From Acidilobaceae archaeon (GTDB taxonomy: Archaea > Thermoproteota > Thermoprotei_A > Sulfolobales > Acidilobaceae): DNA of 64,000 nt. The notes under the pieces are model-generated. The model did not search any database. It saw only the letters and a program-made list of their open reading frames with translations, and was not told the DNA's origin. Numbering within the stretch: the first letter of the stretch is position 1; each line of letters opens with the position of its first letter. The stretch covers positions 242,686 to 306,685 of the forward strand of contig JALVZQ010000005.1 in assembly GCA_027037535.1 (NCBI GenBank), written 5' to 3'. The translations under genes and the position numbers were made by a program. Shown here piece by piece: positions 24,363 to 49,650 of this stretch.

Positions 24363-24520
24363 TGGTGGGCCCACGGGGATTTGAACTCCGGACCTCCACC
24401 AAGCGAGAACACAACCATATGCAACAAAGCATACAATTGATATGCATGTAATCCAAAATCGTATATAGAATGGATATCAACGATGATATTAATCATCGCC
24501 AGATATGCATTAAAGGAAGA
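24363..24520 (-). repeat. att-like repeat copy 1: 45-nt tRNA-Val 3'-half remnant plus conserved module
   Basis: TGGTGGGCCCACGGGGATTTGAACTCCGGACCTCCACCAAGCGAG then AACACAACCATATGCA..GATATGCATGTAATCCAAAA..ATGGATATCAACGATGATATTAAT. Confidence 0.75.
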
Positions 24521-26339
24521 GAGATTATAAGGGCTGTATTAAGGGACTATTTTAATGGAGAAGCGGTATTGGATATGGACAGCTTTTATATCAGGTGGGT
24601 ATTGAGAATTATGCAACCAATACGTAAATTATATGGAGCAATAGTATTTTCTAGAAACGTTGATACTAAAATTAATGAATTTGGAAAGAAATTACATAAT
24701 GAGTTAAAATTACCATACTATGAATTTAAGCTAAATTACAAAGATAAAATTTCATTATTTATAAAATACATTAGGGATAAACATAGTTTAGGTTATACTG
24801 ATTTAATTAATATATATTTAGATAAAATTATAAAAAAGTTTTTAGAAATAAATAATTTAGACTATTCAAAGGATACTTTAAAGCTACTTATTATTGTCAG
24901 TTATAGAGAGGATGTAAAATTTCGTATGGGTAAGACAATTATTGATATTGATACCGAACCCTATTTGAGAATTCTTGAGCAAATTAAAAATAATGCTCCG
25001 GAAAAGAATTTACTCGCCTCTTTATATAATGTTTTCAACAGTGATATTGTTAAAAAAAGACCTCCTAGATTTATTTAAAAAAGCAGAGGAGATATCGAAT
25101 GAAATAAATGCTGATGTTTTTCTAGAAGCTATCGAAAGCACTATTAAACATAGTAACTTATCTCCTTCATTTTTCATTAAAATATATAATGAAATTATTA
25201 AAAATGTAGGACAAAAAGAAAAAATAACCAAAGCATTAGATAAAATAGAACAACGCCTTCGCACAATGGGTTCACGAAAAGTTGATATTGATAGATTATT
25301 AGTGTTAATAAACAATTTAAAAAGAGAATTTCGACCTTATAGGAATCTATATTTACTCTTGTTAATAGTGAGAGAGCGTATGTACAATATAATTAAATCC
25401 CACAAAGAATTATTTATAGAAGAGGTCTCAGAAAGAAGCAGTAAACTAAAAATCAAACCAAAAACAAAATTATCAATCTCTAAATTAAGAGAAATTGAGA
25501 ATAAATTATTTGGTCTCAATCATAAATTTCATATAATTAAAACAATAGATGCTGTTGTCTGGCCTTTGGGGATATTGCTAAGAGTAAATGGTTGGAGTAG
25601 AATAGGCATTATATATTTGATAGAAGCTGACACTAAAAACACAGAAACTCTATGGGAAGCCTTTGTAAACGAGATTTTAGCTGAAAACGCTAGAAAAATA
25701 GCTTATTCCGGAATAATAATTCCTATTTCTCCTAGACAATCTTTTATTTACAAAGATAATTCAACAGAGTCACCTCTCAATCCTAAGCAATCATATCACA
25801 GAAGAACATCTGGAGAAGAAACACAAGATGGCAACAGAGCAAAAAGATATCTTGAATATGTGGAGATAAGTAAAAATACAGGAAAAAGTGAAGTTCTAAA
25901 CTTAATAGAGAGATTATTTAATTTTATAGATAAAGCAAAACATTATGAATTACAATGGTCGAAAGACGATATGATTAAGTTTAGTGACTTTTTAAGATAT
26001 CAATTAAGGCTTTCTGATTTAATTACTACATTTCCTCTAACAAAAGATATATCATTAAAAATAAACAAATTAGAAAAAGAAATAATTAAAAAATTAAATC
26101 AAGAGTTCCCTGAAATACAACTAGAACGACCTCTTGATATATGGATATTATATGAGCATGAAAATCTTAGAAGAAAAGCTATTGACATAATTAGTTCATA
26201 TCTTTCTGAAATAACCAGTGAACCGGAAACCCTGGCTCAAGATATACTTGAAACGGCGTATATTCTAAGCGTTCTGGGTCCTTATATCCAGCAAGGTCAC
26301 CTACGCAAATATGTTTTAGAGGAACAACTTAATTCATAA
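24470..26339 (+). CDS. AT-rich orphan gene, two overlapping ORFs (202 + 454 aa) joinable by a +1 shift at an A7 run (25052-25058)
   Basis: Frame A reads ..SDIVKKRPPRFI then a stop. Frame B reads ..LLKKDLLDLFKKAEE through the same A7 run. No family recognised. The first ~15 codons (MDINDDINHRQIC) are echoed in repeat copies 3 and 4. Confidence 0.5.
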
Positions 26340-26558: not shown

Positions 26559-26948
26559 GTGATACCGTTTGCTAAGCTATTAGGTGAGGTAGAAGTACCA
26601 GTCCCGCATTTATCGTATCGCAATCTAGAGCTTCCACCTTTTACAGAAGAACCGCTAGTATTGGTCTTTGTGGATTGGGACCTGTACAGCTATAGTAGAA
26701 TGAGTTCTGCCCGTAGAGCTCTGAGACGACGCATTGAACCATACGTAGACAAGATAAGAGATGATTACTTAAACCTGCTTATTATCGATATTAGAAGAGG
26801 AGTAGAAGAGGCTCTAGGAGAAATATTGAGTGGCTTGGTTTTCGGTCTCTCAGTTTCATCGTTAATATTAATGGGAATACCGGGCTATCGTGTCTATCTA
26901 CAGGTTAAATTTCTCGACTCTAGTTCCAGGGAAATCGTTCCTTCTTGA
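26559..26948 (+). CDS. hypothetical protein, convergent with the defence operon
   Basis: 129-aa ORF with one C-terminal hydrophobic segment. Overlaps the 3' end of 26920-27438 by 29 nt. Confidence 0.3.
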   Translation: MIPFAKLLGEVEVPVPHLSYRNLELPPFTEEPLVLVFVDWDLYSYSRMSSARRALRRRIEPYVDKIRDDYLNLLIIDIRRGVEEALGEILSGLVFGLSVSSLILMGIPGYRVYLQVKFLDSSSREIVPS

Positions 26949-27438
26949 GGCCTATGTACGTCTTCTCGATAGACTTTACAAATTGTTTAAGGGTAGATGA
27001 CATTATATCTAGTACTGGAGGTGCTATGGTTGTATTTCTCTTAGTTGGTGTGGTTAGCGATTTTGAGAGTTCTAGTGTTATATCAAGCATACCAGCTAAA
27101 GCTGAGGCTATTCCAGGATATTCTTCTTCTAATAGTCTCTCAAGAAACTTATGCCATCTATTATAATTCCTTGCCCGTCTTAGAAGTATAAGATAAGCTC
27201 CTACTAAGGAGCCTAGGTCTTCACGTATTGTATAAGTTCTTCTTTTCTCTGTCACTTCTACTGGTATAACTGCACCATACTTTGAGAGAGTCGTTAGTAG
27301 ATTGTTGAAGATCTCATCCACATACTTCCCCTTTAGTCTAATAATTGTTGATTCCTTAGTTGTACCTCCTATGCTGAAGAATAGTTCCGGCTTCTTCGAA
27401 TACTTCCTGTAAGTTAAATAGAATGCATAGCCTTCCAT
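26920..27438 (-). CDS. hypothetical 172-aa protein, last gene of the BREX-like operon
   Basis: Starts 7 nt after the PglZ-like stop. No motif recognised. Confidence 0.5.
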   Translation of the reverse strand: MEGYAFYLTYRKYSKKPELFFSIGGTTKESTIIRLKGKYVDEIFNNLLTTLSKYGAVIPVEVTEKRRTYTIREDLGSLVGAYLILLRRARNYNRWHKFLERLLEEEYPGIASALAGMLDITLELSKSLTTPTKRNTTIAPPVLDIMSSTLKQFVKSIEKTYIGLKKERFPWN

Positions 27439-27445
27439 AATCGAG

Positions 27446-28282
27446 TCACCTCCCGGGAAGTACAGTTAAAAACAGAGAGAACCTACTGAAAAGAAGTAAG
27501 GGGATATGATTTCCTTTTATTTGCCTTTTAAAACCATGTAAAACATAGATGTATTTGGAACCTGGGTTGTAGATTATGTCGTAGCCGTGGTCCGCGGTAA
27601 CCAATACTATACCATTTAAGGCTTGATTTACAATTTCATCTAAGATTCTATTTATGTCTGTTTTTTCTAGGAACTCTTCTATGCCCATGGAGCCATATTC
27701 GTGTACCTTGAAGTCAAAATAAGCGCTTTTATGGTATCCTTTTGCATGAAGTCTTTCAGCTAGTAGACGGGCATACTCTCTCAAAACACTTCTATAGTCT
27801 AGGCCTGGGAGTTGCTGAGTTACATACCTTGTGAGACCAATGGGATTCATAAAGACAAGATTGGGAGTTACTGTCTTGAACCCTTGTAATCTAGAAGCGG
27901 CTGATATAAGGATAAACTCGTTTAAAGACATACAGTCGTAAACCATTACGTAATCTATTCTTGTGAAAATCTTCATTATCTCTTTGGCAATAGCTGATAT
28001 GTTTGCATTTTCAACTAATATGGGTTTTTTAGAGTTAAGGATATTCTGTAATTCTAGTATAATGTTCTCGAAAACAGGGCTCAGGTCTTTCTTGGCCTTG
28101 AAAAGAAGGGGTTTAGGGATTTTTTCTTCTAAAGGCTTGAGCGCAATCGTGGCTGGGTCATAATTTTTGATTATTTTATATATTGATGAATAAACTAGTG
28201 CCTTATATACATTATCAATATTATATCCACTTAGTAGTTTTTCCACATGGCCGACAGCTCTATCTATATACGTGGCCAGCAA
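27446..28282 (-). CDS. minimal PglZ-like alkaline-phosphatase-fold protein (278 aa)
   Basis: IDYVMVYDCMSLNEF, NPIGLTRY, FDFKVHEYG, VLVTADHGYD and VLHGF follow the metal-ligand order of PglZ / alkaline phosphatase domains. Confidence 0.6.
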   Translation of the reverse strand: MLATYIDRAVGHVEKLLSGYNIDNVYKALVYSSIYKIIKNYDPATIALKPLEEKIPKPLLFKAKKDLSPVFENIILELQNILNSKKPILVENANISAIAKEIMKIFTRIDYVMVYDCMSLNEFILISAASRLQGFKTVTPNLVFMNPIGLTRYVTQQLPGLDYRSVLREYARLLAERLHAKGYHKSAYFDFKVHEYGSMGIEEFLEKTDINRILDEIVNQALNGIVLVTADHGYDIIYNPGSKYIYVLHGFKRQIKGNHIPLLLFSRFSLFLTVLPGR

Positions 28283-28286
28283 TTGT

Positions 28287-29714
28287 TTATCCCCTCACAC
28301 GGACACCTAACCTTTTCGGTTGAAACTCGTGCGGCGACATCTCCGACAGTATATTCACGATGTATTGCCTCATTTCCACAGCTAGTTCTCCTACCTCTTG
28401 AAGCTCTCTTTTATCGAATTCTGCATGCGGATATAGTACCTTTAGTATCCCTGAGAGGAGTTTTCTCACAGCCTTCTCGTCTCTTATAGTATAATTTCCT
28501 TCTAATTCAAATAACTCGTCTACTATCGGCTCGTAACTATATGATCTAAGCCTGTGGAGTATCTCTGAAAGGTAGTCTGCAGCTAACCCATATCCCCTCG
28601 CTAGGTGAAGAGTGCTTTTTGAAATCTTCGGTAGCTTCCAGCCAGGCAATAATCCATGGATTCTATCGATTAGTGCTGTATCTTTCATGAACTCTGGAAG
28701 ATAATCAATTATGCTTCCATAGACTCCCTCCGCGCTTAACTCCACGTTTCCAACGAAAACTAGGCTACATGTACTGTGTGCCCTCTTCAGTAATCCTCTT
28801 TCGAAGTGGCCGTCAACCATATAGTCCTTGAGCTTGGAAACCATCTCGTCAGGATTCGTGAACCTGACCTTTGCAATCTCATCGAAGATAACTGCGTCTC
28901 TTGTCCCAATATCGCCGAGAATACGTAGCCTAGCGTGATAGAATAGCGTTGCAGCACTTATGGTTCCTCCAGCGTATATTCTCGTGTAGTATGAAATGTT
29001 TCTGTAGAGGTAGGTTTTACCTGTTGCTCGAGGGCCGAGCTCCATCAGGTTAACGTTTCCCTCAGCTAATGGTACTAGTCTAAATAAAAGGAGGAGTTTT
29101 TGCTTCCAATTATACATGTCTGGGTTTAACCCGATGCTTTTGATTAGAAGTTCAACCCATTCTTCCAACGTAAACTTTCGTCTTCCTTCTATGAAGGAAT
29201 TAAGGTCAATGTTATAGACCTGGAATGGTTCGAATTCAACCATTATAAGTGGTGTAAAGGGAACCCTCTCCTTTCCCCTAGAGGACATGGCCTCTGCTAT
29301 CTCAGGCCTATACTCGAGGACTCCTATTCCCCAGAGTCCCGATAGTATTCTCTCATATCTCTCTACTATGGAATCGCTTACTAGGGCATCGTAGATTTGT
29401 AGGTTAGGTATATGGAGATAATACATGTTTCTTTTTAAATTAACTACAACCTTGTATTCATCTATTAAAGTTATCCTGCCTCGCCTTTTGGCAATGCTGA
29501 GAACCCTATCCTTCTCGCTGGGATCAGGATAATACTCGCGGACTATGCGTGCAACTGTCTCCTGCCATCCTATGGGGTCTTTCCTATAGTATTTTGATAT
29601 AAGATATTCTGCTATAAAGCGTGGAAGTCGTGAGACCACCTCTAACCTAGCCAGACTCTTCTCTACTGCTGTGTCTCCAAATACCTCTAATACCTTCTCA
29701 TCCGTCAGCTTCAT
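28287..29714 (-). CDS. BrxL-like AAA+ ATPase lacking a Lon protease domain
   Basis: Walker A ELGPRATGKT, Walker B DAVIFDEIA, and blocks LKDYMVDGHFERG, LVFVGN, IDRIHGLLPGWKLPK and GLAADYLSE that parallel BrxL as I recall it. Ends at 475 aa. Confidence 0.7.
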   Translation of the reverse strand: MKLTDEKVLEVFGDTAVEKSLARLEVVSRLPRFIAEYLISKYYRKDPIGWQETVARIVREYYPDPSEKDRVLSIAKRRGRITLIDEYKVVVNLKRNMYYLHIPNLQIYDALVSDSIVERYERILSGLWGIGVLEYRPEIAEAMSSRGKERVPFTPLIMVEFEPFQVYNIDLNSFIEGRRKFTLEEWVELLIKSIGLNPDMYNWKQKLLLLFRLVPLAEGNVNLMELGPRATGKTYLYRNISYYTRIYAGGTISAATLFYHARLRILGDIGTRDAVIFDEIAKVRFTNPDEMVSKLKDYMVDGHFERGLLKRAHSTCSLVFVGNVELSAEGVYGSIIDYLPEFMKDTALIDRIHGLLPGWKLPKISKSTLHLARGYGLAADYLSEILHRLRSYSYEPIVDELFELEGNYTIRDEKAVRKLLSGILKVLYPHAEFDKRELQEVGELAVEMRQYIVNILSEMSPHEFQPKRLGVRVRG

Positions 29715-29727
29715 TCTATCACACTCA

Positions 29728-32700
29728 TTAGGGTAGGAATCTATCGAAGCTCCGCTTAACCGTGTAGTAGTCGCCGAACACTTCCTTTACGATTTGCTCT
29801 TTGACGGGTTCACCTAGTGTGATTGATACTTTGACTGTACCAGTCTCTTTTGAAGAGAGTCTTGAGATCAGATTGAGTACCACTCTCCAGTCTCTGAGCG
29901 TGTCGACGTCGACGTCCCTGATTGCGAATGATAGATTTGCTTTATTTGTTTCCAGTTGAAATACTAGTTCATTCACGGTCGCTTTATAGTGTTCAATAAA
30001 CACGGTCAACTTCTGCTGGACATCGTCAACGTTAAACCCTGAAGGTAGCTCGAGGCTAATGCTAGTTATCTTGGTTTCACCAATAAATCTAGGTTTTACT
30101 TCTACGACGGAGTCCCTGGTCGCCGGAGTAAAAGGCTTCTGAGCAGATACAGGCGGCAAAGCTATAGTCGTAGGTGGAACCTCTTCTTCGGGGGTTTCTT
30201 TGTGTTTAATGTTAAATACTATCAAGCCATTGGCTTCATCAACTATGATTTCAATAGTTTTATCGGTTAATTCTATCGTCTGCTTATGAAGATATCTTAT
30301 AGCCTCTCGTGCGACAATCGCACTCAGAGGTTTAACGTCATAGCTTCCTTGCAATAAGTTCTCCAGGACCTCATCTATTCTATCGCTCTCCCTTAGGTTT
30401 CCTGACTCGAACTCTCTCCTATACCAGTCGAGTACCACTCTCATTAGCTCAATGGGCTTGTGATGGTAGTTTAAGGAATTAATTATACTTCTCAAATATC
30501 CGTTGAGAATAGAAGTATATTTTTCTAAGTTCTTAGGCGCTTTGTACTCGCCTAATCCTTCTGTCGAGGAACTGATGGTTGGAGGAATGATTGTTTTACT
30601 AACGAATCTCCCTTCGTCCAGGCTGTAATAAATTGCCTTAGAATATAGTGATAATATCTCGGCGACGATTTCCCTGGAAAGAGTCACTAGTTGTCTCTGT
30701 GCTAGCCTCCTTGCTTCACTTATCTCGCTTTCAAGTTTACTTTTAAGTCCTGCAAGATGCTTCTCCTTCAACTCTTTCGTGTAGATCTCCATTAGGTTTT
30801 TTCTTTTTGTTAATGTATCCTCGTATTCTCTTAGGCGCTCCATTAAGACGTCGCTACTCTTCTCTAAGTAGTGTAGGAATCTCTTGGTTCCCTCGTAAAC
30901 TACGAGTTTGTCAAGTAACTTGTCTAATCTGTGTTTCGAGACGTTGGGGACGAGAACTACGATATGGAGTGGACGCTGGATTTTACCCTTGTCGACCTCT
31001 GCCTGCAGACGTCCAGCCAATCCTTCTACGAGCTGATCATATCCGGTTTTTTCCTTGTATAGTCTGTTGTATAAGTCTAGATCCCATACTGGAATAATTG
31101 AAAAGAGGAGCTTGCCTTCTCTCTGAGCGTTTACAAAAGCGTGGTTAGACGTGAATACACTTGTATCCCATACTTTGTTGAATTCGATTAGGGAAACAAC
31201 GACATCCTCGGCTCTCCCATCCACCACTACCTTAACATTTGCGAAAAGGGAGGGGACGGTTCCTTTTTGACGTAGATATAGGGGAATAATTGTTTCCTTC
31301 TCGATGTTCCTTCTTTCTTCCTGTACAAATGCAGTCAATTTACTATATATCGTCTTAAAGAAGGAGGGTAAGAGGAATCTCTTTCCCTTAACTTCTCTCT
31401 CCTCGATTCTAGCACTCTCCGCCTTAAGCTTTTCCAATGCTTCTCCTAAAAGCTCGAGAAGCCTGAAGGACTCGGCTTCACGGTGACTCTGTATTATTTC
31501 AACCTGCATCTCTTCAAGGGTCGAGCCATATCTCTCGATTTCCCTTTCATCCTCTGATTCGACTAGGGCTAGAATATTTGCTGTTACTCCCTTAGCGAAA
31601 ATGTATTTTGCCGAGAACTCTGCTGGATAGCGGTATTTCTCCTCTATTTTCTCAAGCGCCATTTCTACGTCGGATGCTGCTTGAATCCAATCTCCTTCTA
31701 ACTCGCCAGTAAGTTTGGCTTGCAGAGTCTCGGGTAAGCTGAGGTGTTTGAGGCCTATAGTGTAGGAGTTTGTCGCATCTTCTCTTAGAGCTTTTTCTGC
31801 AGCTTCCGCAGCTATGTACAGGATTGTTCTAACATACTCTGTTCTTGGAAGGTCTCGGGGATTCATGGCCTTCCTGAATAGTCTTATTAGACCTAGGGAG
31901 AAGGGGTAGAACTTCTCTAGTTCGCCCTTAAACGATTCTAGTGATTCTCTAAGGTTTAGCTGGCTTGCGATTAGTTTTAGGTTAGAGTAATAGGCGTCTC
32001 GAATATCTGAGAGATTTGATACTGTGGGCTTCAATAATCTATGGATCGCTATCTCGATCGCGTGAGAGGGACTATAGGATAGCTCTCCTATCCCGGTTCC
32101 TGCAAGGCCTCTGCTATATCTCTCTCGGAGACCATCTAGGTCTCCAAGCATCCCCTCTATCTTGGAATGTATTACCTTGTTATCCTGGTGTTTAAGCATT
32201 ATTAATTTAATATCTCTCCTATCTTGCTCGGCAAGCACCCATACTACTATAGCTGAATAGGGTTTTCCCTGAAGCTTTTCATACAGGTAGCTTAGGAAGT
32301 TGATTATAGAGTTTGTCTCGTAATATATCTCGTGTGCCTTGCCCTCTTCCCCTTGAATCAGAAAGTCAGCGTATCGACGTACACGCTGAGCAAGCCCATA
32401 ACCCAATTCGTCTACAAGTAATAAGAGTCTAGGCCTCTTGCAACCATACTCATTACACTTCTCGAGAATCTCTACGATGAGCCCAGCTAGCTCGTCGGAG
32501 GAGAGACTGTAGAGCTTAGTCTTGTCGTATCGTGAGAGAACCCTCCTGACAGCCTGTATTAGTCTTCCATCCTTCACCTTTACAACTGGATGATCCATGT
32601 TAGAGTAGGCCTCTAAGAGTGAGACTAGTTTCGTGAGAGGCTTTTCCTGAGAAAAGTCCATTCCTAGCACTAGAGTCTCCCTTACAATATCTCTAGGGAC

Positions 32701-33030
32701 ATCGATAATCTCCGCCTCCCTGTACATGTCCGAGGTGAAAAGATGCCAGAGCAGAATGAGTAAGTGTGTTTTTCCAAAGCCAAAGCCCCTCTCAAGAGAC
32801 CCACCAACTATACCAACGCTCCTCAAGTTATCAATTATCCTGTTAACAAACAATCGGAGCGGATCTGTCAGATACGTTACCTCGAAGAAGTAACCCGGGT
32901 CAGCGTAGCTTGTCTCCCTAACCCCTGTAACCCAGGACTCCAGTACTTGGCCAAAACTAGGGATTAACTCCCCACGTAGGTCCTCAAGACTAGTCTTGAG
33001 GGTAAAGACCTCGCCAACATATTTCCTCAA
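29728..33030 (-). CDS. DUF499-type P-loop ATPase (BrxC/PglY-like), 1100 aa
   Basis: ADPGYFFEVTYLT..LERGFGFGKTHLLILLWHLF (Walker A) and RLLLLVDELGYG (Walker B), followed by a long helical C-terminal region. Confidence 0.75.
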   Translation of the reverse strand: MRKYVGEVFTLKTSLEDLRGELIPSFGQVLESWVTGVRETSYADPGYFFEVTYLTDPLRLFVNRIIDNLRSVGIVGGSLERGFGFGKTHLLILLWHLFTSDMYREAEIIDVPRDIVRETLVLGMDFSQEKPLTKLVSLLEAYSNMDHPVVKVKDGRLIQAVRRVLSRYDKTKLYSLSSDELAGLIVEILEKCNEYGCKRPRLLLLVDELGYGLAQRVRRYADFLIQGEEGKAHEIYYETNSIINFLSYLYEKLQGKPYSAIVVWVLAEQDRRDIKLIMLKHQDNKVIHSKIEGMLGDLDGLRERYSRGLAGTGIGELSYSPSHAIEIAIHRLLKPTVSNLSDIRDAYYSNLKLIASQLNLRESLESFKGELEKFYPFSLGLIRLFRKAMNPRDLPRTEYVRTILYIAAEAAEKALREDATNSYTIGLKHLSLPETLQAKLTGELEGDWIQAASDVEMALEKIEEKYRYPAEFSAKYIFAKGVTANILALVESEDEREIERYGSTLEEMQVEIIQSHREAESFRLLELLGEALEKLKAESARIEEREVKGKRFLLPSFFKTIYSKLTAFVQEERRNIEKETIIPLYLRQKGTVPSLFANVKVVVDGRAEDVVVSLIEFNKVWDTSVFTSNHAFVNAQREGKLLFSIIPVWDLDLYNRLYKEKTGYDQLVEGLAGRLQAEVDKGKIQRPLHIVVLVPNVSKHRLDKLLDKLVVYEGTKRFLHYLEKSSDVLMERLREYEDTLTKRKNLMEIYTKELKEKHLAGLKSKLESEISEARRLAQRQLVTLSREIVAEILSLYSKAIYYSLDEGRFVSKTIIPPTISSSTEGLGEYKAPKNLEKYTSILNGYLRSIINSLNYHHKPIELMRVVLDWYRREFESGNLRESDRIDEVLENLLQGSYDVKPLSAIVAREAIRYLHKQTIELTDKTIEIIVDEANGLIVFNIKHKETPEEEVPPTTIALPPVSAQKPFTPATRDSVVEVKPRFIGETKITSISLELPSGFNVDDVQQKLTVFIEHYKATVNELVFQLETNKANLSFAIRDVDVDTLRDWRVVLNLISRLSSKETGTVKVSITLGEPVKEQIVKEVFGDYYTVKRSFDRFLP

Positions 33031-33032
33031 GA

Positions 33033-36000
33033 CTAACTCACCTCGCCTCTCACTAACTTAAGGAGAGTAAGAACTGCGAGCTCACGGGAAACCTCTGAAG
33101 ACTTATCGCCAGAGAAAAGATACCTCTCGAGACCAACAGTCCTAGCCTCCTGCAAACCAAGGTCTGCGCCCCTAGCCGTCTCTAGCAGGAGTACTGCTAG
33201 CGCCGCAGACTCGCGGATGCCCTCATTGCCCCACTCCCTAACCCTACGGAGTATGTTCTTAGCCCTCACACCAGGTGCTCCCGTCTCATTCAACGCAAGG
33301 TATACTAAGTATATTGCTCTCCCCGGCGCAAGCTTTGAGAACCTATCCCATGAAGTCTTAGCGCCAGCCGCAGTAAGAGCTTCAAATAGAACAGGGTAGA
33401 AAGCTTTACCCTTCCTCTCCTCCTCACTACTACTGGCCAGCTTCTCGCCTACTAGACCTATCTCTTTAAGCCTATCAATATCATAGCCCAGCATCTTAGC
33501 TATAGTCTGTGCAAAGTCATAGCTCAAGGGTAGAGGCTTATCCCTATACTTTCCAGACTCGAGGTCAACACGGCTAACAAACCATAGCGTAACAAAACTA
33601 CGCGTAGCAGGATCCATCAACATTGCATGACTAACAAGCTCCGATACCCTAGCAGCGTCTCCATTACTAAGCCGGACAGGACCAGACTCCCTAAGTATTC
33701 TACCTATTACGGGCATAACGAAAGCCTCATCAACAAGCGTTGACGCCGCATCAAACAATGGCTCAAACCTGTCAAGACCGGGCACCTCAAACCTCGAAGC
33801 AACACTCAAAGCAGTGCCAAGCATGAGAGCCATCATATCAGCAGGACTAGCACCAGCATCCCTAGCAACCCTCCTCGACTCCTCCACAGCCTCCCTAGCA
33901 GCAGACCGGAAAGCAGAGTTCTCCAACAAACTCCTCCTAACATCAGCTCCAATCTCAACAAGCCTCCTACGCTCATACTTACGGGCAACAATTATGAGAC
34001 TAGTCTCTTGAGCAACTACATTAACCTGGCCCTTATACCTGGTCTTCATCTCAGTCTTAACCGGCCAAACACGAGACACCACATAGCCAGCCTTGTAGAG
34101 CGACTCGCCTACAGTCTTCCAAGCAACATCAGTTGGGTGAGTAAACCACAATACTAGAACTCCGTCATCTCGCAGAACCTTATATGTTTCCTTCACGAAT
34201 TCGGAGAAGAACCTCTTAAACCTGTCAGAAGAGTCCCTCTTATCATAAGTCACGACCTCATTCTCCCTAGGAACCCTGGGACTACTCCAGCTCCAACCAG
34301 ATACCATTAACCTATCCCTGAACAGGAGTTCGAGCACCGGGCGTAGACTCCTCCTCAATATAACCCAAAAGAACTCGCTCCTATCACTATAGATAACCTG
34401 CTCGAAATAGGGAGGATCAACATTAACAACATCAACACTATTCACCCCAAGAATATTAGAAAGCCTTGTAGCGTCCCCCAGGAAAACACTAACCCTATCG
34501 CCGAGACCTGAGTCCTGAAACTCCTCGACAAGGAACCGAAGAACAGGGAGAATACCGCCTTTCGTTCTTGTAGGATTTGAAGATTCAGCAATATCGGTTT
34601 CAAGAGCCCATTCAATATTCTTATAGATCGGAATGGCTTCGGCATATTCTTGGCGGAAGTCAAGCGTACTTTCTCCTCTCATAGCTGGCGATATTACTGC
34701 ATTTCCACGATGCCATGTAGTCGATATTGTATTATAGTTAGTCATTTTGTCTATGGCGAACGCCAAGTAAAGTGCTACTGCTGCTCCAAACTCGCCGTTA
34801 CTTGAAGCTAGTTTTTCTGCTGCCTCGGCTACTATTTTTGATAGTTTTGCTAATGCTAGAAGTTGCCTCGGGTTGTATAGCATGTACCAGTGTGTAAGTC
34901 CCTTGTTCCTAGCTGTGCTTGCCCATTTGTTGTCTGGGGGTATTGGGTCTAGTGGTATGTAGTCTTGTAGTTCTAGTATTTCTTTTGAGAGGTCTCTGTA
35001 GGCCTGCAGGAATCTTTCTCGTTCCTCCTCGTCATCCCATATCGCTGTGAACCCGTTTCCTACCTGCTTGACTAATGGTATATGTGTAGATAACAGCCTC
35101 TCCTCTAGTTCTGGTGTAACCTCTTCGTACTCCTCTACTACTCGTCTCATTAGTTCTGCGTGTTCGAGGAACCATTTGTCAAAAGCGGTTGTTCCTGTTT
35201 TTGCTCTTCCACGTAGCTGGAACCACCTGCCGCAGTACGGGCATTTTATATTGTAGCCTCTCTTCTCGTAGGGTTTACTGGGTTCCTTATTGACTGTCTC
35301 TATATGGAATATTTTCCTTTCTTTATCGTATTGAATCTTGAGATATCTGTTTTTGAAACGTGTAGCCTTAGTTATTATAGGGGCGACTCCTTGGACAGGT
35401 ATTAGTCCTCCGCAGAAGGGGCATCTTACCCCTCTCGCGAAAATATATCCATCATTTTTTGTATAGTATTTTCCTAATTCTTCCCTAGCCTTATTGATAA
35501 ACTCCTTAGCAGCTCTAAGAGTCTCCTCGAAAAGCCCCGAGTCCGCATACTTAGCGGGAAACTCTACAGTAGCCCTTGTGACGAGGTAAGCTACGGGGTT
35601 GTAGTCAATAGCTATAGTTTTAAAACCAAGCCTGAGACTCTCTAATGGAATACTGCCTCCACCAGCCATAGGGTCCACAACAACAATTTCCTTTGATTCT
35701 CTACGGTATTGTTTTGTAACAATATTCTTGATTTCGTTTCTTTCAGGTCTTGTGTAGAATAGGAGAGGAGGCATCTTGTTCTTTTTAGCTTTTTCTCGTG
35801 AATTATATCCTATTAACTTGAGAAATAGATTTTCGTCTATATCATTATGCAGAACACTTGCTAATGTTAATGCTCTTGCAACTCCAGCGGGTCTTCTTGC
35901 AAACCATGTGTGGATGCTTCTAAGTTTAGGGTCGAAATATCCTCGAAAAACTTTGAAGCCAGCCTCTAAAATTCCGTCCTCGTTAATCTCTCTGAGCGGG

Positions 36001-36041
36001 AGTTTTTCCTCGATGAATTTCTTTCTTATCATTTTACTCAC
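33033..36041 (-). CDS. DUF1156-type Zn-ribbon DNA methyltransferase (N6A/N4C class), 1002 aa
   Basis: IHTWFARRPAGVARAL (DUF1156 block), motif I VVDPMAGGGSIPLE, CPFCGG..CPYCG ribbon, motif IV VNVDPPYFEQVIY. Start is GTG 36041 or ATG 36032. Confidence 0.85.
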   Translation of the reverse strand: MSKMIRKKFIEEKLPLREINEDGILEAGFKVFRGYFDPKLRSIHTWFARRPAGVARALTLASVLHNDIDENLFLKLIGYNSREKAKKNKMPPLLFYTRPERNEIKNIVTKQYRRESKEIVVVDPMAGGGSIPLESLRLGFKTIAIDYNPVAYLVTRATVEFPAKYADSGLFEETLRAAKEFINKAREELGKYYTKNDGYIFARGVRCPFCGGLIPVQGVAPIITKATRFKNRYLKIQYDKERKIFHIETVNKEPSKPYEKRGYNIKCPYCGRWFQLRGRAKTGTTAFDKWFLEHAELMRRVVEEYEEVTPELEERLLSTHIPLVKQVGNGFTAIWDDEEERERFLQAYRDLSKEILELQDYIPLDPIPPDNKWASTARNKGLTHWYMLYNPRQLLALAKLSKIVAEAAEKLASSNGEFGAAVALYLAFAIDKMTNYNTISTTWHRGNAVISPAMRGESTLDFRQEYAEAIPIYKNIEWALETDIAESSNPTRTKGGILPVLRFLVEEFQDSGLGDRVSVFLGDATRLSNILGVNSVDVVNVDPPYFEQVIYSDRSEFFWVILRRSLRPVLELLFRDRLMVSGWSWSSPRVPRENEVVTYDKRDSSDRFKRFFSEFVKETYKVLRDDGVLVLWFTHPTDVAWKTVGESLYKAGYVVSRVWPVKTEMKTRYKGQVNVVAQETSLIIVARKYERRRLVEIGADVRRSLLENSAFRSAAREAVEESRRVARDAGASPADMMALMLGTALSVASRFEVPGLDRFEPLFDAASTLVDEAFVMPVIGRILRESGPVRLSNGDAARVSELVSHAMLMDPATRSFVTLWFVSRVDLESGKYRDKPLPLSYDFAQTIAKMLGYDIDRLKEIGLVGEKLASSSEEERKGKAFYPVLFEALTAAGAKTSWDRFSKLAPGRAIYLVYLALNETGAPGVRAKNILRRVREWGNEGIRESAALAVLLLETARGADLGLQEARTVGLERYLFSGDKSSEVSRELAVLTLLKLVRGEVS

Positions 36042-36204
36042 TCTCTTTTGGGTTTGTAACTATTATTTTGCCGTTTTCGTAGTACCATGCTATTTTGTCT
36101 CCTTCTTTGAGGCCTAGGAGCTTTCTTACCTCGCCGGGGACTGTTGTCCTGTTGTATTTTCCTATAATTGTAACTTTTAGGAGTCTTCTTTGTAATCGTG
36201 GCAA
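36034..36204 (-). CDS. SpoVT/AbrB-type small DNA-binding protein (56 aa), first gene of the operon
   Basis: Below the ORF-track size cut-off. Hand translation from TTG 36204: LPRLQRRLLKVTIIGKYNRTTVPGEVRKLLGLKEGDKIAWYYENGKIIVTNPKESE. This matches the AbrB swapped-hairpin signature. Its stop overlaps the methyltransferase start. Confidence 0.6.
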   Translation of the reverse strand: MPRLQRRLLKVTIIGKYNRTTVPGEVRKLLGLKEGDKIAWYYENGKIIVTNPKESE

Positions 36205-36220
36205 GGTCGCTTGTCACCTG

Positions 36221-36255
36221 CTTATATAGAATTCTATAGGCTTTCCTATAAAAGG
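36221..36255 (-). promoter_or_regulatory. candidate archaeal promoter of the BREX-like operon (two TATA-like boxes)
   Basis: The minus strand reads TTTTATAGG and CTATATAAG about 45 and 22 nt upstream of TTG 36204. Confidence 0.35.
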
Positions 36256-36788
36256 CGTCGCCGCCTCTCGCTATATAATACGAGCTTTAGCTTAATAGTG
36301 CTTCTATGGAACAGGTCTCTTCACTGGGAGGAGAGATAATCTTCTGGAAACACGTCCTCAGGATGGCGGGGGAGTGGAGCCCGCTTGAACAGGCAAAAAG
36401 CCCTACTAGCGAGTTCGAGCCGGGGCTTTGGAGTAGTAATGATTGGTGCTGCTACTATCTGGGCGTAGGGGAGAGTAGTAAGCGAGCAGGCTACATATAT
36501 TTTCCGCTAACTGGGTGAGGATTAGAATACCCAGCTAGACTACCGTCAGCTCAATGAATAAATTACGCAGAATAGGCGTGCAGGCGAAGGAGTTCAGGAA
36601 GCTCGCTAACCGAGTACTGGAGGAGCTGGCGCACATGCACAACATCCGCCTCAACGCCGTAAACCCCATTATGAGCAGGGAATTGCGGTTACCGGGACTA
36701 GTTATGTGAATGCGCGGGACTGGGCGGACAAACTATCGGGCAAACTATTCGACATTTACATTAACTGGTTAAAGGAGAAAGGCCAAAT

Positions 36789-37352
36789 CTAACTTCCCTT
36801 TTTTATTAGTGCGGCTATCTCTCTTACCAGCTTCTCTATCCTCTTATAGGCGTTCTTGATATCCTTCTTGGTGCACCAGCCCTCGTAGAAGCAGACATGC
36901 ATTTCGGTCGCGCTGGCCCATGAGTCGTGAACCCATTCCCCGAACTCATCTCCCAGCCTCCTCTTATACTCCCACAGCTCTCCATGACTTGTTAATCTCT
37001 TACCCTCCCTCCAGTAAGCGTATGCTTTAATAGCTATTGCTGCCGCGCCCCATAGTTTCTTGGCCGCCTGCCTGACATTACCCTTACCAAGCTCCTCACG
37101 TGCCTCCTCCAATAGGTCCTCAGCAGCCTCGATATACTCCAAGGCCCTATCCCGGGGATCTAGGCCTTGGCTTAGGAGCTCGACGAGGTACTCATCGACG
37201 CTAAGACCGTATTTTTCAGCCTTCTCCCGGACCCGCCTGGCTAGACGGCCCCGAATAACCAGCGCCTCAGCCAACCTTGACGCCTCTAAAACAATAATAT
37301 TGGCTCCACGGCTAAAAAGAATAGCCGAAATGGCGGACAGGAACACGTACAT
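36789..37352 (-). CDS. PaREP1-family (HEPN-like) protein with N-terminal RHH-like segment
   Basis: KYGLSVDEYLVELLSQGLDP..AAKKLWGAAAIAIKAYAYWREGKRLTSHGELW..EMHVCFYEGW matches the PaREP1 pattern known from Thermoproteales and Sulfolobales. Confidence 0.6.
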   Translation of the reverse strand: MYVFLSAISAILFSRGANIIVLEASRLAEALVIRGRLARRVREKAEKYGLSVDEYLVELLSQGLDPRDRALEYIEAAEDLLEEAREELGKGNVRQAAKKLWGAAAIAIKAYAYWREGKRLTSHGELWEYKRRLGDEFGEWVHDSWASATEMHVCFYEGWCTKKDIKNAYKRIEKLVREIAALIKKGS

Positions 37353-38872: not shown

Positions 38873-39172
38873 TTGCTCTATCTCATGCTAGCTTTAAGAG
38901 AGCTGGGTGAGTCAAATAACTCTTGGGGAGACGGTGTGGAGCGGAAGTTTAAATGGATTGAAATAAATCCAAATGTTTGCCATGGTAAACCAGTGTTCAA
39001 GGGTACAAGAGTCCTTGTGGCTGATGTTCTTGAAATGATTGCATCCGGTATGAGTATTGAGGAGATTTTAGAGGAGTATCCCCAGCTAAACAAGGAGATG
39101 ATTCTTGAGGCAATAGCTCTTGCAGCCGAGCTCCTTAGGAGGGAGAGACGTGTCATACCAATTCCTGCTTGA
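38873..39172 (+). CDS. DUF433-family antitoxin-like protein
   Basis: INPNVCHGKPVFKGTRVLVADVLEMIASGMSIEEILEEYPQL is the DUF433 signature. Confidence 0.75.
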   Translation: MLYLMLALRELGESNNSWGDGVERKFKWIEINPNVCHGKPVFKGTRVLVADVLEMIASGMSIEEILEEYPQLNKEMILEAIALAAELLRRERRVIPIPA

Positions 39173-39422
39173 CGAAAACGTGCCCAGAACAATTTTTAAG
39201 CTACTAAGACAGAAAGGCTTCCACGCCGAATATGTACCTCGAGGTATTGACGATAGAACAGTTATTGAAATAGCTAGAGAAAAGAACTTGGTACTAATTA
39301 CAAGAGATAGCGATTTTGCCGACGAGTTGAGGTATCCGCCTAACTCCCATCCGGGCATTATTGTGCTTCACATCCATCCCTCACTACCAAGGGTGATGGC
39401 TGAACGCCTTGTATTCTTGTGA
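39150..39422 (+). CDS. DUF5615 / Mut7-C-like PIN-related toxin partner of DUF433
   Basis: FLLDENVP..LITRDSDF pattern. GTG 39150 is preceded by GGAGGGAGAG; the track ORF starts at 39120. Confidence 0.65.
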   Translation: MSYQFLLDENVPRTIFKLLRQKGFHAEYVPRGIDDRTVIEIAREKNLVLITRDSDFADELRYPPNSHPGIIVLHIHPSLPRVMAERLVFL

Positions 39423-39522
39423 AGAATATCAAAGAGCTGAACGGAAAGATTATAATAGTATATAATGATAGAATAGAGATTATTGGAAAATAACAATTTT
39501 CTTAAAAGTGTTACCAGTTAGG

Positions 39523-39690
39523 TGGTGGGCCCGCCGGGATTTGAACCCCCACCTTCGCCATGTGAGAACGTCATCGTATGCATTTAATCATTATCATTGA
39601 TATGCATGATAATCTAAAGTGATAAACATTATGGATATCCAGATTAATATTAACAACTGTGCAATATGCATGATGTTAGACGGAGTGTTC
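39523..39690 (-). repeat. att-like repeat copy 3
   Basis: TGGTGGGCCCGCCGGGATTTGAACCCCCACCTTCGCCATGTGAG then AACGTCATCGTATGCA..GATATGCATGATAATCTAAA..ATGGATATCCAGATTAATATTAAC..CAATATGCATG. Confidence 0.7.
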
Positions 39691-39710: not shown

Positions 39711-40064
39711 TTACTTTAAGCCAAAAATATTACTTAATTCATCCTTAACCTTAGCTAGAGCCTCTTCAGCAAGTCTGCCAACGATCTTCACAACTAATTT
39801 CTTCTCCACAGTAAAAATACTCGAACAATCTATATAGCTTGGCTCCTTCTTTAAGCGGCCAATGGCTAAGTCTGATTGTTTTATCGCTATTCTATTCAAC
39901 CCAGGAGAGCTGGTTATCTTTGCTACTACCATATCGTCGCCTAAGTTTATTGCATTTAATACCAAGACAGGCCTTAGTTTAGAGCCTAGTAAGTCTGTGA
40001 AGGGAAGCTCTAGGATAACAATATCTCCTTGTTTATATTTCGAAGAGTTCTTCGGCATCCTCAC
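39711..40064 (-). CDS. mazF: MazF/PemK-family toxin
   Basis: KQGDIVILELPF..GSKLRPVLVLN..VVAKITSS pattern. Confidence 0.75.
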   Translation of the reverse strand: MRMPKNSSKYKQGDIVILELPFTDLLGSKLRPVLVLNAINLGDDMVVAKITSSPGLNRIAIKQSDLAIGRLKKEPSYIDCSSIFTVEKKLVVKIVGRLAEEALAKVKDELSNIFGLK

Positions 40065-41228: not shown

Positions 41229-41306
41229 TGGTGGGCCCGCGGGGATTTGAACCCCGGACCTCCGCCGTGTGAGGGCGGCGTCCTGACCAGGCTAGACGAC
41301 GGGCCC
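41229..41306 (-). tRNA. tRNA-Val (CAC), CCA encoded
   Basis: Reverse complement GGGCCCG-TC-GTCT..GGAC-G-CCGCC-CTCACAC-GGCGG-AGGTC-CGGGG-TTCAAAT-CCCCG-CGGGCCC-A-CCA folds as a cloverleaf. Confidence 0.95.
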
Positions 41307-49572: not shown

Positions 49573-49650
49573 TGGTGGGCCCGCGGGGATTTGAACCCCG
49601 GACCTCCGCCGTGTAAGGGCGGCGTCCTGACCAGGCTAGACGACGGGCCC
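49573..49650 (-). tRNA. tRNA-Val (UAC), CCA encoded
   Basis: Identical to the 41229-41306 gene except one base in the anticodon (CTTACAC loop). Confidence 0.95.

Follow-up and report, generated by a model that had tools for sequence, protein, structure and literature searches.

A compact archaeal cassette joins a DUF499-type ATPase and a DUF1156-type methylase to a Lon-less BrxL and a minimal PglZ-like enzyme

Within a 64,000-nucleotide (nt) stretch of the genome of an Acidilobaceae archaeon (assembly GCA_027037535.1, contig JALVZQ010000005.1, forward-strand positions 242,686 to 306,685; this whole stretch is the window, and its positions are counted from its first letter), six closely packed minus-strand genes at 26920-36204 encode an AbrB-like protein, a DUF1156-type methylase, a DUF499-type ATPase, a short BrxL, a PglZ-like protein of 278 residues (mini-PglZ) and a 172-residue protein (p172). 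Homology and gene order indicate that this locus is probably a methylation-based anti-virus or anti-plasmid system belonging to the DUF499-centred, Hma-like BREX-Related (BR) lineage, one that is helicase-free, is built on a minimal PglZ and, in this archaeal clade, has acquired a short BrxL. An earlier note on this DNA had described a stripped-down operon resembling BREX (bacteriophage exclusion). Its compactness and its combination of a methylase, a DUF499 ATPase, a Lon-less BrxL and a PglZ-like protein are upheld by our analysis, but we place the operon in the Hma/BREX-Related lineage and not in BREX proper. The arrangement mixes parts of two known defence families, Hma/BREX-related and BREX, and is not a new kind of system.

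In transcription order, the operon comprises the AbrB-like gene (36034-36204; 56 residues, TTG start), the methylase gene (33033-36041; 1002 residues), the ATPase gene (29728-33030; 1100 residues), brxL (28287-29714; 475 residues), the mini-PglZ gene (27446-28282; 278 residues) and the p172 gene (26920-27438; 172 residues), all on the minus strand. Recomputed junctions in the same order are -8, +2, +13, +4 and +7 nt, agreeing with the range previously given, from an 8-nt overlap, here between the AbrB stop and the methylase start, to a 13-nt gap. All six open reading frames (ORFs) lie where they had been placed, and the quoted motifs (HTWFARRP, DPMAGGGS, CPFC/CPYC, DPPY, FGFGKTH, LLLVDELG, ELGPRATGKT, VIFDEI, YDCMSLNEF and VTADHGYD) are all found in the translations. 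Ahead of the first gene, a putative promoter region read from the sequence (36205-36262, minus strand) contains the A/T-rich TATA-like boxes TTTATAGG and TCTATATAAG, approximately 20-50 nt upstream of the TTG start, a position that suggests a leaderless or short-leader transcript. The operon genes have a GC content of 0.37-0.46, and the window as a whole has one of 0.44. The deposited proteins, MEB3759604-MEB3759607, are annotated as 'hypothetical' for all but BrxL.

Related loci were gathered by homologue look-ups and by scanning one genome per GTDB species, giving more than 20 loci that were re-annotated with hidden Markov models (HMMs) from our own alignments; the scan itself yielded 17 loci from 15 species genomes among 185,579 species representatives. 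The order methylase–ATPase–BrxL–mini-PglZ–p172 is identical in every locus spanning all five genes (13/13), and contig-truncated loci keep the same order as far as their sequence extends. The five-gene loci come from Desulfurococcaceae, Pyrodictium, Infirmifilum, Sulfolobales, unclassified Thermoprotei, several Bathyarchaeia and Terraquivivens (Nitrososphaerota), and across them ATPase identity to the window protein drops to 35-37%. Since the five large genes retain both their order and their tight spacing in all 13 of these other complete loci, the arrangement is not due to chance. We give very little weight to an accidental juxtaposition or fusion remnant, in which an Hma-like methylase and ATPase without a helicase would have come to lie beside a type-4 BREX fragment consisting of BrxL and PglZ without forming a functional unit. 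Defence islands are mosaic and short BrxL proteins do occur in other contexts (on a Thermus plasmid with a helicase, an NYN protein and an N6 methylase), but across loci of Thermoproteota (including Bathyarchaeia) and Nitrososphaerota, with protein identities of 35-68%, the same order recurs with tight or overlapping junctions, mini-PglZ and p172 never occur without the methylase/ATPase pair, and mini-PglZ is unrelated in sequence to the PglZ of type-4 BREX. This explanation is thus largely refuted by synteny.

Not every member of the family carries BrxL. The cassettes of Archaeoglobus (L019) and Methanoxibalbensis (L020) read methylase–ATPase–mini-PglZ–p172, with neither BrxL nor a helicase within 10 kb. 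The most distant metagenomic relatives of mini-PglZ possess the same four genes, sometimes in permuted order (ATPase–mini-PglZ–small protein–methylase in L041), and again neither BrxL nor a helicase was found among them; one of these cassettes, L047, adjoins an integrase-like gene with a faint Pfam match, and its ATPase matches our own small DUF499 HMM (7.5e-16). Indeed, neither the window operon nor any of about 20 related loci, flanks of up to 10 kb included, showed a helicase. Because loci lacking BrxL exist, the methylase, the ATPase, mini-PglZ and p172 make up a core of four genes into which BrxL was inserted in one clade. BrxL and the first, regulatory gene are exchangeable accessories.

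The identification of BrxL from its sequence is unambiguous. The 475-residue protein matches NCBIfam TIGR02688 (E=1.9e-142; 475 bits, with the cutoff at 329) together with the Pfam families BrxL_ATPase (E=3e-111) and BrxL_N (E=1e-25), and aligns to residues 10-463 of the 679 in the BrxL structure 8EMC (E=1.7e-79), that is, to all but the Lon-like domain. It comprises an N-terminal DNA-binding region and an MCM-like AAA+ core (ELGPRATGKT, VIFDEI), with no C-terminal Lon or HKD domain, as had been proposed for a Lon-less BrxL. BrxL is reportedly a DNA-loading MCM-like AAA+ ring (Shen et al. 2023; PDB 8EMC and 8EMH). Lon-less forms were previously known from type-4 BREX, and BrxL has been stated to be specific to BREX types 1 and 4 (PMC12839542). 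We also observed a 534-residue protein annotated as BrxL, without a C-terminal domain of Lon size, on the Thermus thermophilus plasmid NZ_AP025610.1 (L024, 9117-21192); its neighbours are two hypothetical proteins, a helicase-related protein, an NYN-domain protein and a 1338-residue N6 methylase, with no PglZ or BrxC annotated. This is another non-BREX context for BrxL.

The methylase matches best the PADLOC models HmaB (E=1.5e-45) and DUF1156_MTase (E=3.7e-26), and by tblastn it is 22-27% identical to annotated plasmid DUF1156 proteins, with E-values down to 1e-48. On the basis of these profile and tblastn matches it is a divergent DUF1156/HmaB methylase, which bears out the family assignment made before. 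Its divergence is evident from the NCBIfam model DUF1156_antiphage (NF042963), which it matches with E=2.8e-35 and 122 bits against an equivalog cutoff of 1000, and from the Pfam models N6_N4_Mtase and DUF1156, for which it falls just below threshold. Similarity to the PADLOC PglX|PglXI model (E=5.9e-9) is limited to about 90 residues of the catalytic core. The protein begins with the DUF1156 motif HTWFARRP, followed by S-adenosylmethionine motif I (DPMAGGGS), an insert forming a four-cysteine zinc ribbon (CPFC...CPYC), motif IV (DPPY) and a C-terminal region of about 300 residues. The succession of motif I, zinc-ribbon insert and DPPY is the architecture described for the methylases of BR systems (PMC12839542), and the catalytic motif DPPY predicts specificity for N6-adenine. 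Separately, approximately 310 nt at about 35690-36003, covering methylase codons of roughly 13-117, have no blastn match in locus L005, although elsewhere the two operons are 91% identical; the N-terminal region may have recombined locally or diverged rapidly.

The ATPase possesses a P-loop with the Walker A sequence GFGFGKTH and the Walker B sequence LLLVDELG. Its kinship becomes apparent when a 24-sequence family alignment is compared by hhalign with three annotated DUF499 proteins from canonical Hma loci, which align over residues 1-542 with a probability of 98.1% (E=1.3e-13), taking in Walker A, Walker B and a YPF motif; the probability against three BrxC sequences is 20.7%. These values put the ATPase on the DUF499 side and not on the BrxC side, so that of the DUF499 (BrxC-like) ATPase named in the earlier note the DUF499 part stands, the relation to BrxC being only remote. 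A match to PADLOC HmaC (E=3.3e-6) covers the Walker A region. The DUF499/HmaC homology of the N-terminal 540 or so residues is visible at the profile-profile level only, the C-terminal 560 or so residues are family-specific, and HMMER returned no match to the ATPase among PDB sequences.

The 172-residue protein had been regarded as an orphan, and so it proves to be: conserved, yet with no detectable relative outside its own family. We found 14 homologues directly, at 41-94% identity, and further ones in related loci. The p172 gene always comes immediately after that of mini-PglZ, in most relatives the protein is about five residues shorter at the C-terminus (167 residues), and its homologues co-occur with mini-PglZ in every locus examined. 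The AlphaFold2 model (predicted local distance difference test, pLDDT, 85.5) consists of three strands, a helix, two further strands and a C-terminal four-helix bundle, and fold searches with it found nothing significant in the PDB (best E=0.067) or among the viral predicted structures of BFVD. Two candidate identities were considered. That p172 is a BrxB or iSTAND protein was rejected, given an alignment probability with BrxB of 0.4%, the lack of a BrxB fold match in the PDB and a model that is not P-loop-like; neither brxA nor brxB was found in the operon, as previously claimed. Membership in DUF7680/DUF3780 is unproven: DUF7680 is the top Pfam match of the p172 family but a weak one (E=0.009-0.04), and hhalign against eight canonical small proteins, gathered by similarity to that of L030, gave E=0.06 and a probability of 0.9%. 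Small proteins encoded between the DUF499 and DUF1156 genes of two canonical Hma/BR loci do match DUF7680 (L030:9483-9989, E=1e-44; L031:9300-9941, E=2.5e-39). In the literature the small component of Hma/BR loci is called DUF3780, and the two names may cover the same component.

The AlphaFold2 model of mini-PglZ, built from 20 homologues (pLDDT 87, predicted template modelling score 0.90), has an N-terminal four-helix region (approximately residues 1-105) followed by an alpha/beta core of about 170 residues. The top Foldseek matches in the PDB are to the PglZ domain of PorX (8ted_B, E=3.8e-4, prob 0.98; 7pv7), followed by the Acinetobacter BREX PglZ (9zn5_B, E=4e-3, prob 0.92) and then by other enzymes of the alkaline phosphatase (AP) superfamily. 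Across 44 cluster representatives D116, N146, T151, D190 and H194 are invariant, and S119, E122, G149, D231, H232, G233, Y234 and H249 nearly so; among these, D116, T151, D190, H194, D231, H232 and H249 are candidate metal or nucleophile residues. They are arranged as D…T…DxxxH…DH…H, the threonine following the first aspartate at a distance of 35 residues, a pattern that we take to correspond to the metal-and-nucleophile site of NPP and PglZ enzymes. The same spacing is present in BREX-1 PglZ, where the aligned residues are D503 and T538. Comparison with the BREX-1 PglZ core by hhalign (62%, E=7e-5) pairs D190 with D617 and D231-H232 with D661-H662; against four BREX-1 PglZ sequences the DHG region alone was aligned, with 40-62% probability.

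In sequence searches the window protein scores below threshold against PADLOC PglZ (E=0.049) and the Pfam families Metalloenzyme and Sulfatase (E=0.14-0.23), and it does not match Pfam PglZ. Pfam PglZ is the family matched most often by its relatives, by five of 44 members with a best E of 0.0016, followed by Phosphodiest (NPP), Sulfatase and Metalloenzyme. HMMER searches with 21- and 44-member mini-PglZ profiles recovered neither PglZ nor PorX among PDB sequences, the best AP-family match being ENPP4 (E=1.3), and a profile search of 1.84 billion representatives returned 49 clusters at 50% identity, all of 69-312 residues and none a canonical PglZ. The family is thus small, and it is always accompanied by the cassette ATPase, the methylase and the small protein in the loci examined. 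Because the sequence-level link to PglZ failed, the assignment rests on fold and motif: the earlier PglZ call is supported by the predicted fold and the active-site pattern, whereas the HMM evidence for it stays sub-threshold. We conclude that the 278-residue protein is a minimal NPP/PglZ-type phosphodiesterase domain of the alkaline-phosphatase/NPP superfamily; that it belongs to PglZ proper is likely, but not proven.

Several points weigh against our reading of the locus and are best considered together. The functions of all the cassette parts are inferred from homology and synteny. Neither Pfam DUF499 nor DUF6079, nor any other Pfam family, matches any of the 24 members of the ATPase family, and the roles that we give to the C-terminal half of the ATPase and to p172 are guesses, as both are without detectable relatives. 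Some cassette copies appear to be decaying, with BrxL split in L001:6220-7647 (289 + 185 residues) and a methylase of only 388 residues in Pyrodictium (L008:8826-9992). The AbrB/MazE fold of the first gene product is shared with antitoxins. No PglZ model of Pfam or PADLOC matches the 278-residue protein above threshold and the Foldseek TM-scores are low (0.35-0.39), which makes another NPP-type phosphodiesterase with a small-molecule substrate possible. Such a phosphodiesterase or phosphatase would hydrolyse nucleotides or signals, or act in regulation, leaving DNA restriction to something else or to nothing at all. In favour of this, the likeness to PglZ is one of fold only, and Phosphodiest (NPP), Sulfatase and Metalloenzyme matches are about as frequent in the family as PglZ matches; PorX, which gives the best structural match, is an oligonucleotide phosphodiesterase, and NPP enzymes acted ancestrally on small nucleotides (PMC12839542). 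We nevertheless consider a small-molecule role unlikely, given that PglZ-domain proteins, including a BREX PglZ, take the first three places among distinct structural matches, that the DUF499 ATPase, the methylase and BrxL are the partners of PglZ in BREX and BR systems, and that no other nuclease is conserved in the loci.

A PglZ-type effector within a defence cassette is accordingly the reading that we prefer, and from homology the following division of labour can be proposed. The AbrB-fold protein would control the operon promoter and be translationally coupled to the methylase, in the manner of the controller proteins of restriction-modification systems. The DUF1156-type methylase would mark a host DNA motif with N6-methyladenine, probably in complex with the ATPase, and the DUF499-type ATPase may serve as scaffold and scanner, telling unmodified incoming DNA apart. 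Mini-PglZ would be the metal-dependent phosphodiesterase effector, nicking invader DNA or hydrolysing nucleotides as BREX PglZ is reported to do, with p172 as its obligate partner or adaptor in the role that BrxB performs for PglZ in BREX. BrxL may form an MCM-like AAA+ ring on DNA, replacing the Snf2 helicase of other BR systems and blocking or processing the replication of the invader. Published evidence supports several elements of such a scheme: BREX PglZ is a metal-dependent nuclease working with BrxB, and standalone PglZ has been proposed as the sole effector of Type-3 BR systems (PMC12839542), while systems combining DUF499 and DUF1156 proteins (Hma) are experimentally validated defences (PMC11232893).

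The first gene differs from the rest in its distribution. Its product belongs to the SpoVT-AbrB (AbrB/MazE) fold family, with matches above cutoff to Pfam MazE_antitoxin (E=1.3e-7) and NCBIfam AbrB TIGR01439 (E=2.3e-7), so the name given to it earlier is correct. It is not a conserved component of the cassette: apart from the window, only the 91%-identical loci L005 and L006 have it ahead of the methylase. In seven other loci an unrelated conserved gene of about 130-150 residues lies directly upstream of the methylase (L004:972-1391, L007:6486-6998, L011:1118-1474, L012:6609-7019, L013:4721-5269, L016:6077-6550 and L019:6558-6947). The product of this gene, of about 140 residues, carries the motifs LLILGPSYRR…LPAIERYDGxFYR…TEDL and ranges from Thermoproteota to Archaeoglobus; it matches no Pfam family and the window holds no copy of it. 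AbrB probably regulates transcription of the operon in this lineage only. Its fold also bears on whether the cassette is immune in nature at all, for it could instead be an epigenetic or chromatin methylation module, or an addiction module built around an AbrB/MazE-like antitoxin, in keeping with the antitoxin families among the AbrB/MazE-fold matches and with a neighbourhood rich in toxin-antitoxin genes. We think this highly improbable: AbrB is not conserved with the cassette, and the patchy and rare distribution, variable flanks, decaying copies and integrase-like neighbour in one relative are what defence genes, as opposed to housekeeping genes, typically show.

The surroundings of the operon are plausibly a defence or toxin-antitoxin neighbourhood. 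Between the operon and the tRNA-Val (CAC) gene at 41229-41306 lie a PaREP1/HEPN gene (36789-37352), a DUF433 and DUF5615/PIN-like pair (38873-39422) and a PemK/MazF toxin gene (39711-40064). The claim that the operon itself lies inside a tRNA-Val-linked island could not be sustained, as no partial copy of this tRNA gene brackets it. The sole tRNA-like fragment is a 44-nt sequence at 39522-39565, TGGTGGGCCCGCCGGGATTTGAACCCCCACCTTCGCCATGTGAG, which resembles the 3' half of the same tRNA-Val in the same orientation; it may be the att remnant of an old integration bounding about 1.7 kb that includes the PemK toxin gene and excludes the operon. The tRNA-Val genes at 41229-41306 (CAC) and 49573-49650 (TAC) are identical to each other over two stretches, of 42 nt and 39 nt. 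Immediately downstream of the operon is a stretch of low GC content (0.30-0.33) at approximately 23-27 kb. Two plus-strand ORFs, 24470-25078 (202 residues) and 24975-26339 (454 residues), converge on the operon there with the same GC content of 0.30-0.33, and they have neither a Pfam family nor a counterpart in the 91%-identical L005. In L005 a 4.2-kb insertion follows right after the p172 gene, and the region past p172 looks like a variable hot spot beside the cassette.

How BREX stops phages has yet to be settled, above all as regards what PglZ and BrxL do. The cassette offers a natural minimal PglZ, reduced to a short helical region and a core of about 170 residues and invariably accompanied by one small partner, alongside a BrxL that has no Lon or HKD domain and is absent from sister systems. 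What it offers is not a new principle but a compact, thermostable and apparently undescribed combination, with which the roles of PglZ and BrxL become easier to study and the range of known contexts for BrxL grows. The pairing of BrxL with a DUF499/DUF1156 (Hma-type) module contradicts the confinement of BrxL to BREX types 1 and 4 and favours a mix-and-match view of BREX-related immunity. Full-text literature searches that paired DUF1156 or DUF499 with BrxL turned up no account of the combination. Whether the cassette amounts to an undescribed fourth DUF499-centred BR subtype, with a helicase-free four-gene core, the smallest known PglZ, a new obligate partner and a BrxL independently recruited in Thermoproteota, is in our judgement an evenly poised question, and we hold the odds to be just as level that such a subtype occurs mostly in archaeal lineages, many of them thermophilic. 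Were it so, BrxL would here be seen for the first time outside BREX types 1 and 4, making it a portable module, and the minimal PglZ/partner pair would help to work out the way in which PglZ restricts DNA. Hyperthermophile proteins are well suited to structural and biochemical studies, and the cassette would enlarge the thin catalogue of defence systems of Thermoproteota and Bathyarchaeia.

With BREX type 1 the cassette has its overall logic in common, in that a single operon encodes a methylase, a large P-loop ATPase, a PglZ or PglZ-like protein and BrxL, frequently headed by a small transcription regulator. It differs in having no BrxA (DUF1819) or BrxB (DUF1788), in a DUF1156 methylase instead of PglX, in an ATPase remote from BrxC (21%), in a PglZ about three times smaller and in a BrxL without the Lon-like domain. 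BREX type 4 (BrxP PAPS reductase, BrxC, PglZ and short BrxL) is similar in its BrxL, which likewise lacks Lon and HKD domains and falls under the same TIGR02688 model, and in having a PglZ-type gene next to BrxL. The cassette, by contrast, encodes a methylase in place of phosphorothioation, a DUF499-like ATPase in place of BrxC/DUF6079, and a PglZ reduced to a domain of about 170 residues without N-terminal iSTAND or Swi2/Snf2-like domains. Hma and the Type-1 and Type-2 BR systems resemble it in the methylase (HmaB, E=1.5e-45), in the N-terminal half of the ATPase (98% to DUF499) and in the presence of a small alpha+beta protein in the locus; in place of the HmaA helicase-nuclease the cassette has a PglZ-like enzyme and BrxL, and its methylase precedes the ATPase, as opposed to the order ATPase–small protein–methylase–helicase of Hma loci. 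The cassette thus lacks the BrxC, PglX and BrxA/BrxB that characterize BREX and the helicase-nuclease that characterizes Hma.

The closest known system is Type-3 BR, a similar architecture catalogued in 2026 (Rakesh & Krishnan, NAR 2026, PMC12839542), which has in common with the window cassette a DUF499 ATPase, a DUF1156 N6 methylase with a zinc-finger insert, the idea of a standalone PglZ as presumed sole effector, the lack of brxA and a frequent occurrence in archaea. The candidate for this standalone PglZ in the cassette has an NPP/PglZ-like fold and all of the putative metal ligands. Type-3 BR has been reported in 134 archaeal taxa, including TACK lineages, and retains all three core components including a BrxHII-like helicase, with an inactive STAND protein in 82% of taxa (PMC12839542). 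The cassette could be a trivial member of this catalogued type, which is defined by the DUF499 ATPase, the DUF1156 methylase with its insert and the standalone PglZ; moreover, UniRef already names one homologue of the ATPase, from Fervidicoccus, a 'DUF499 domain-containing protein', and iterative searches could have gathered the family. We judge this doubtful, as about 20 loci lack a helicase, p172 is unlike BrxB/iSTAND in sequence or fold, PMC12839542 restricts BrxL to BREX types 1 and 4, and neither the locus accessions nor the term 'Desulfurococcales' occurs in the supplementary text of that study (its gene-neighbourhood tables lie outside this comparison). A distinct, helicase-free relative of Type-3 BR agrees better with the differences, which are drawn from the published description of that type. 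In place of a BrxHII/Snf2 helicase and an inactive-STAND (BrxB/BrxF-like) protein, the cassette contributes a novel protein of 160-180 residues and, in the Thermoproteota-type clade only, a short BrxL encoded between the ATPase and PglZ genes. Its ATPase goes unrecognised by Pfam DUF499, and its PglZ is much smaller, below the level of Pfam detection.

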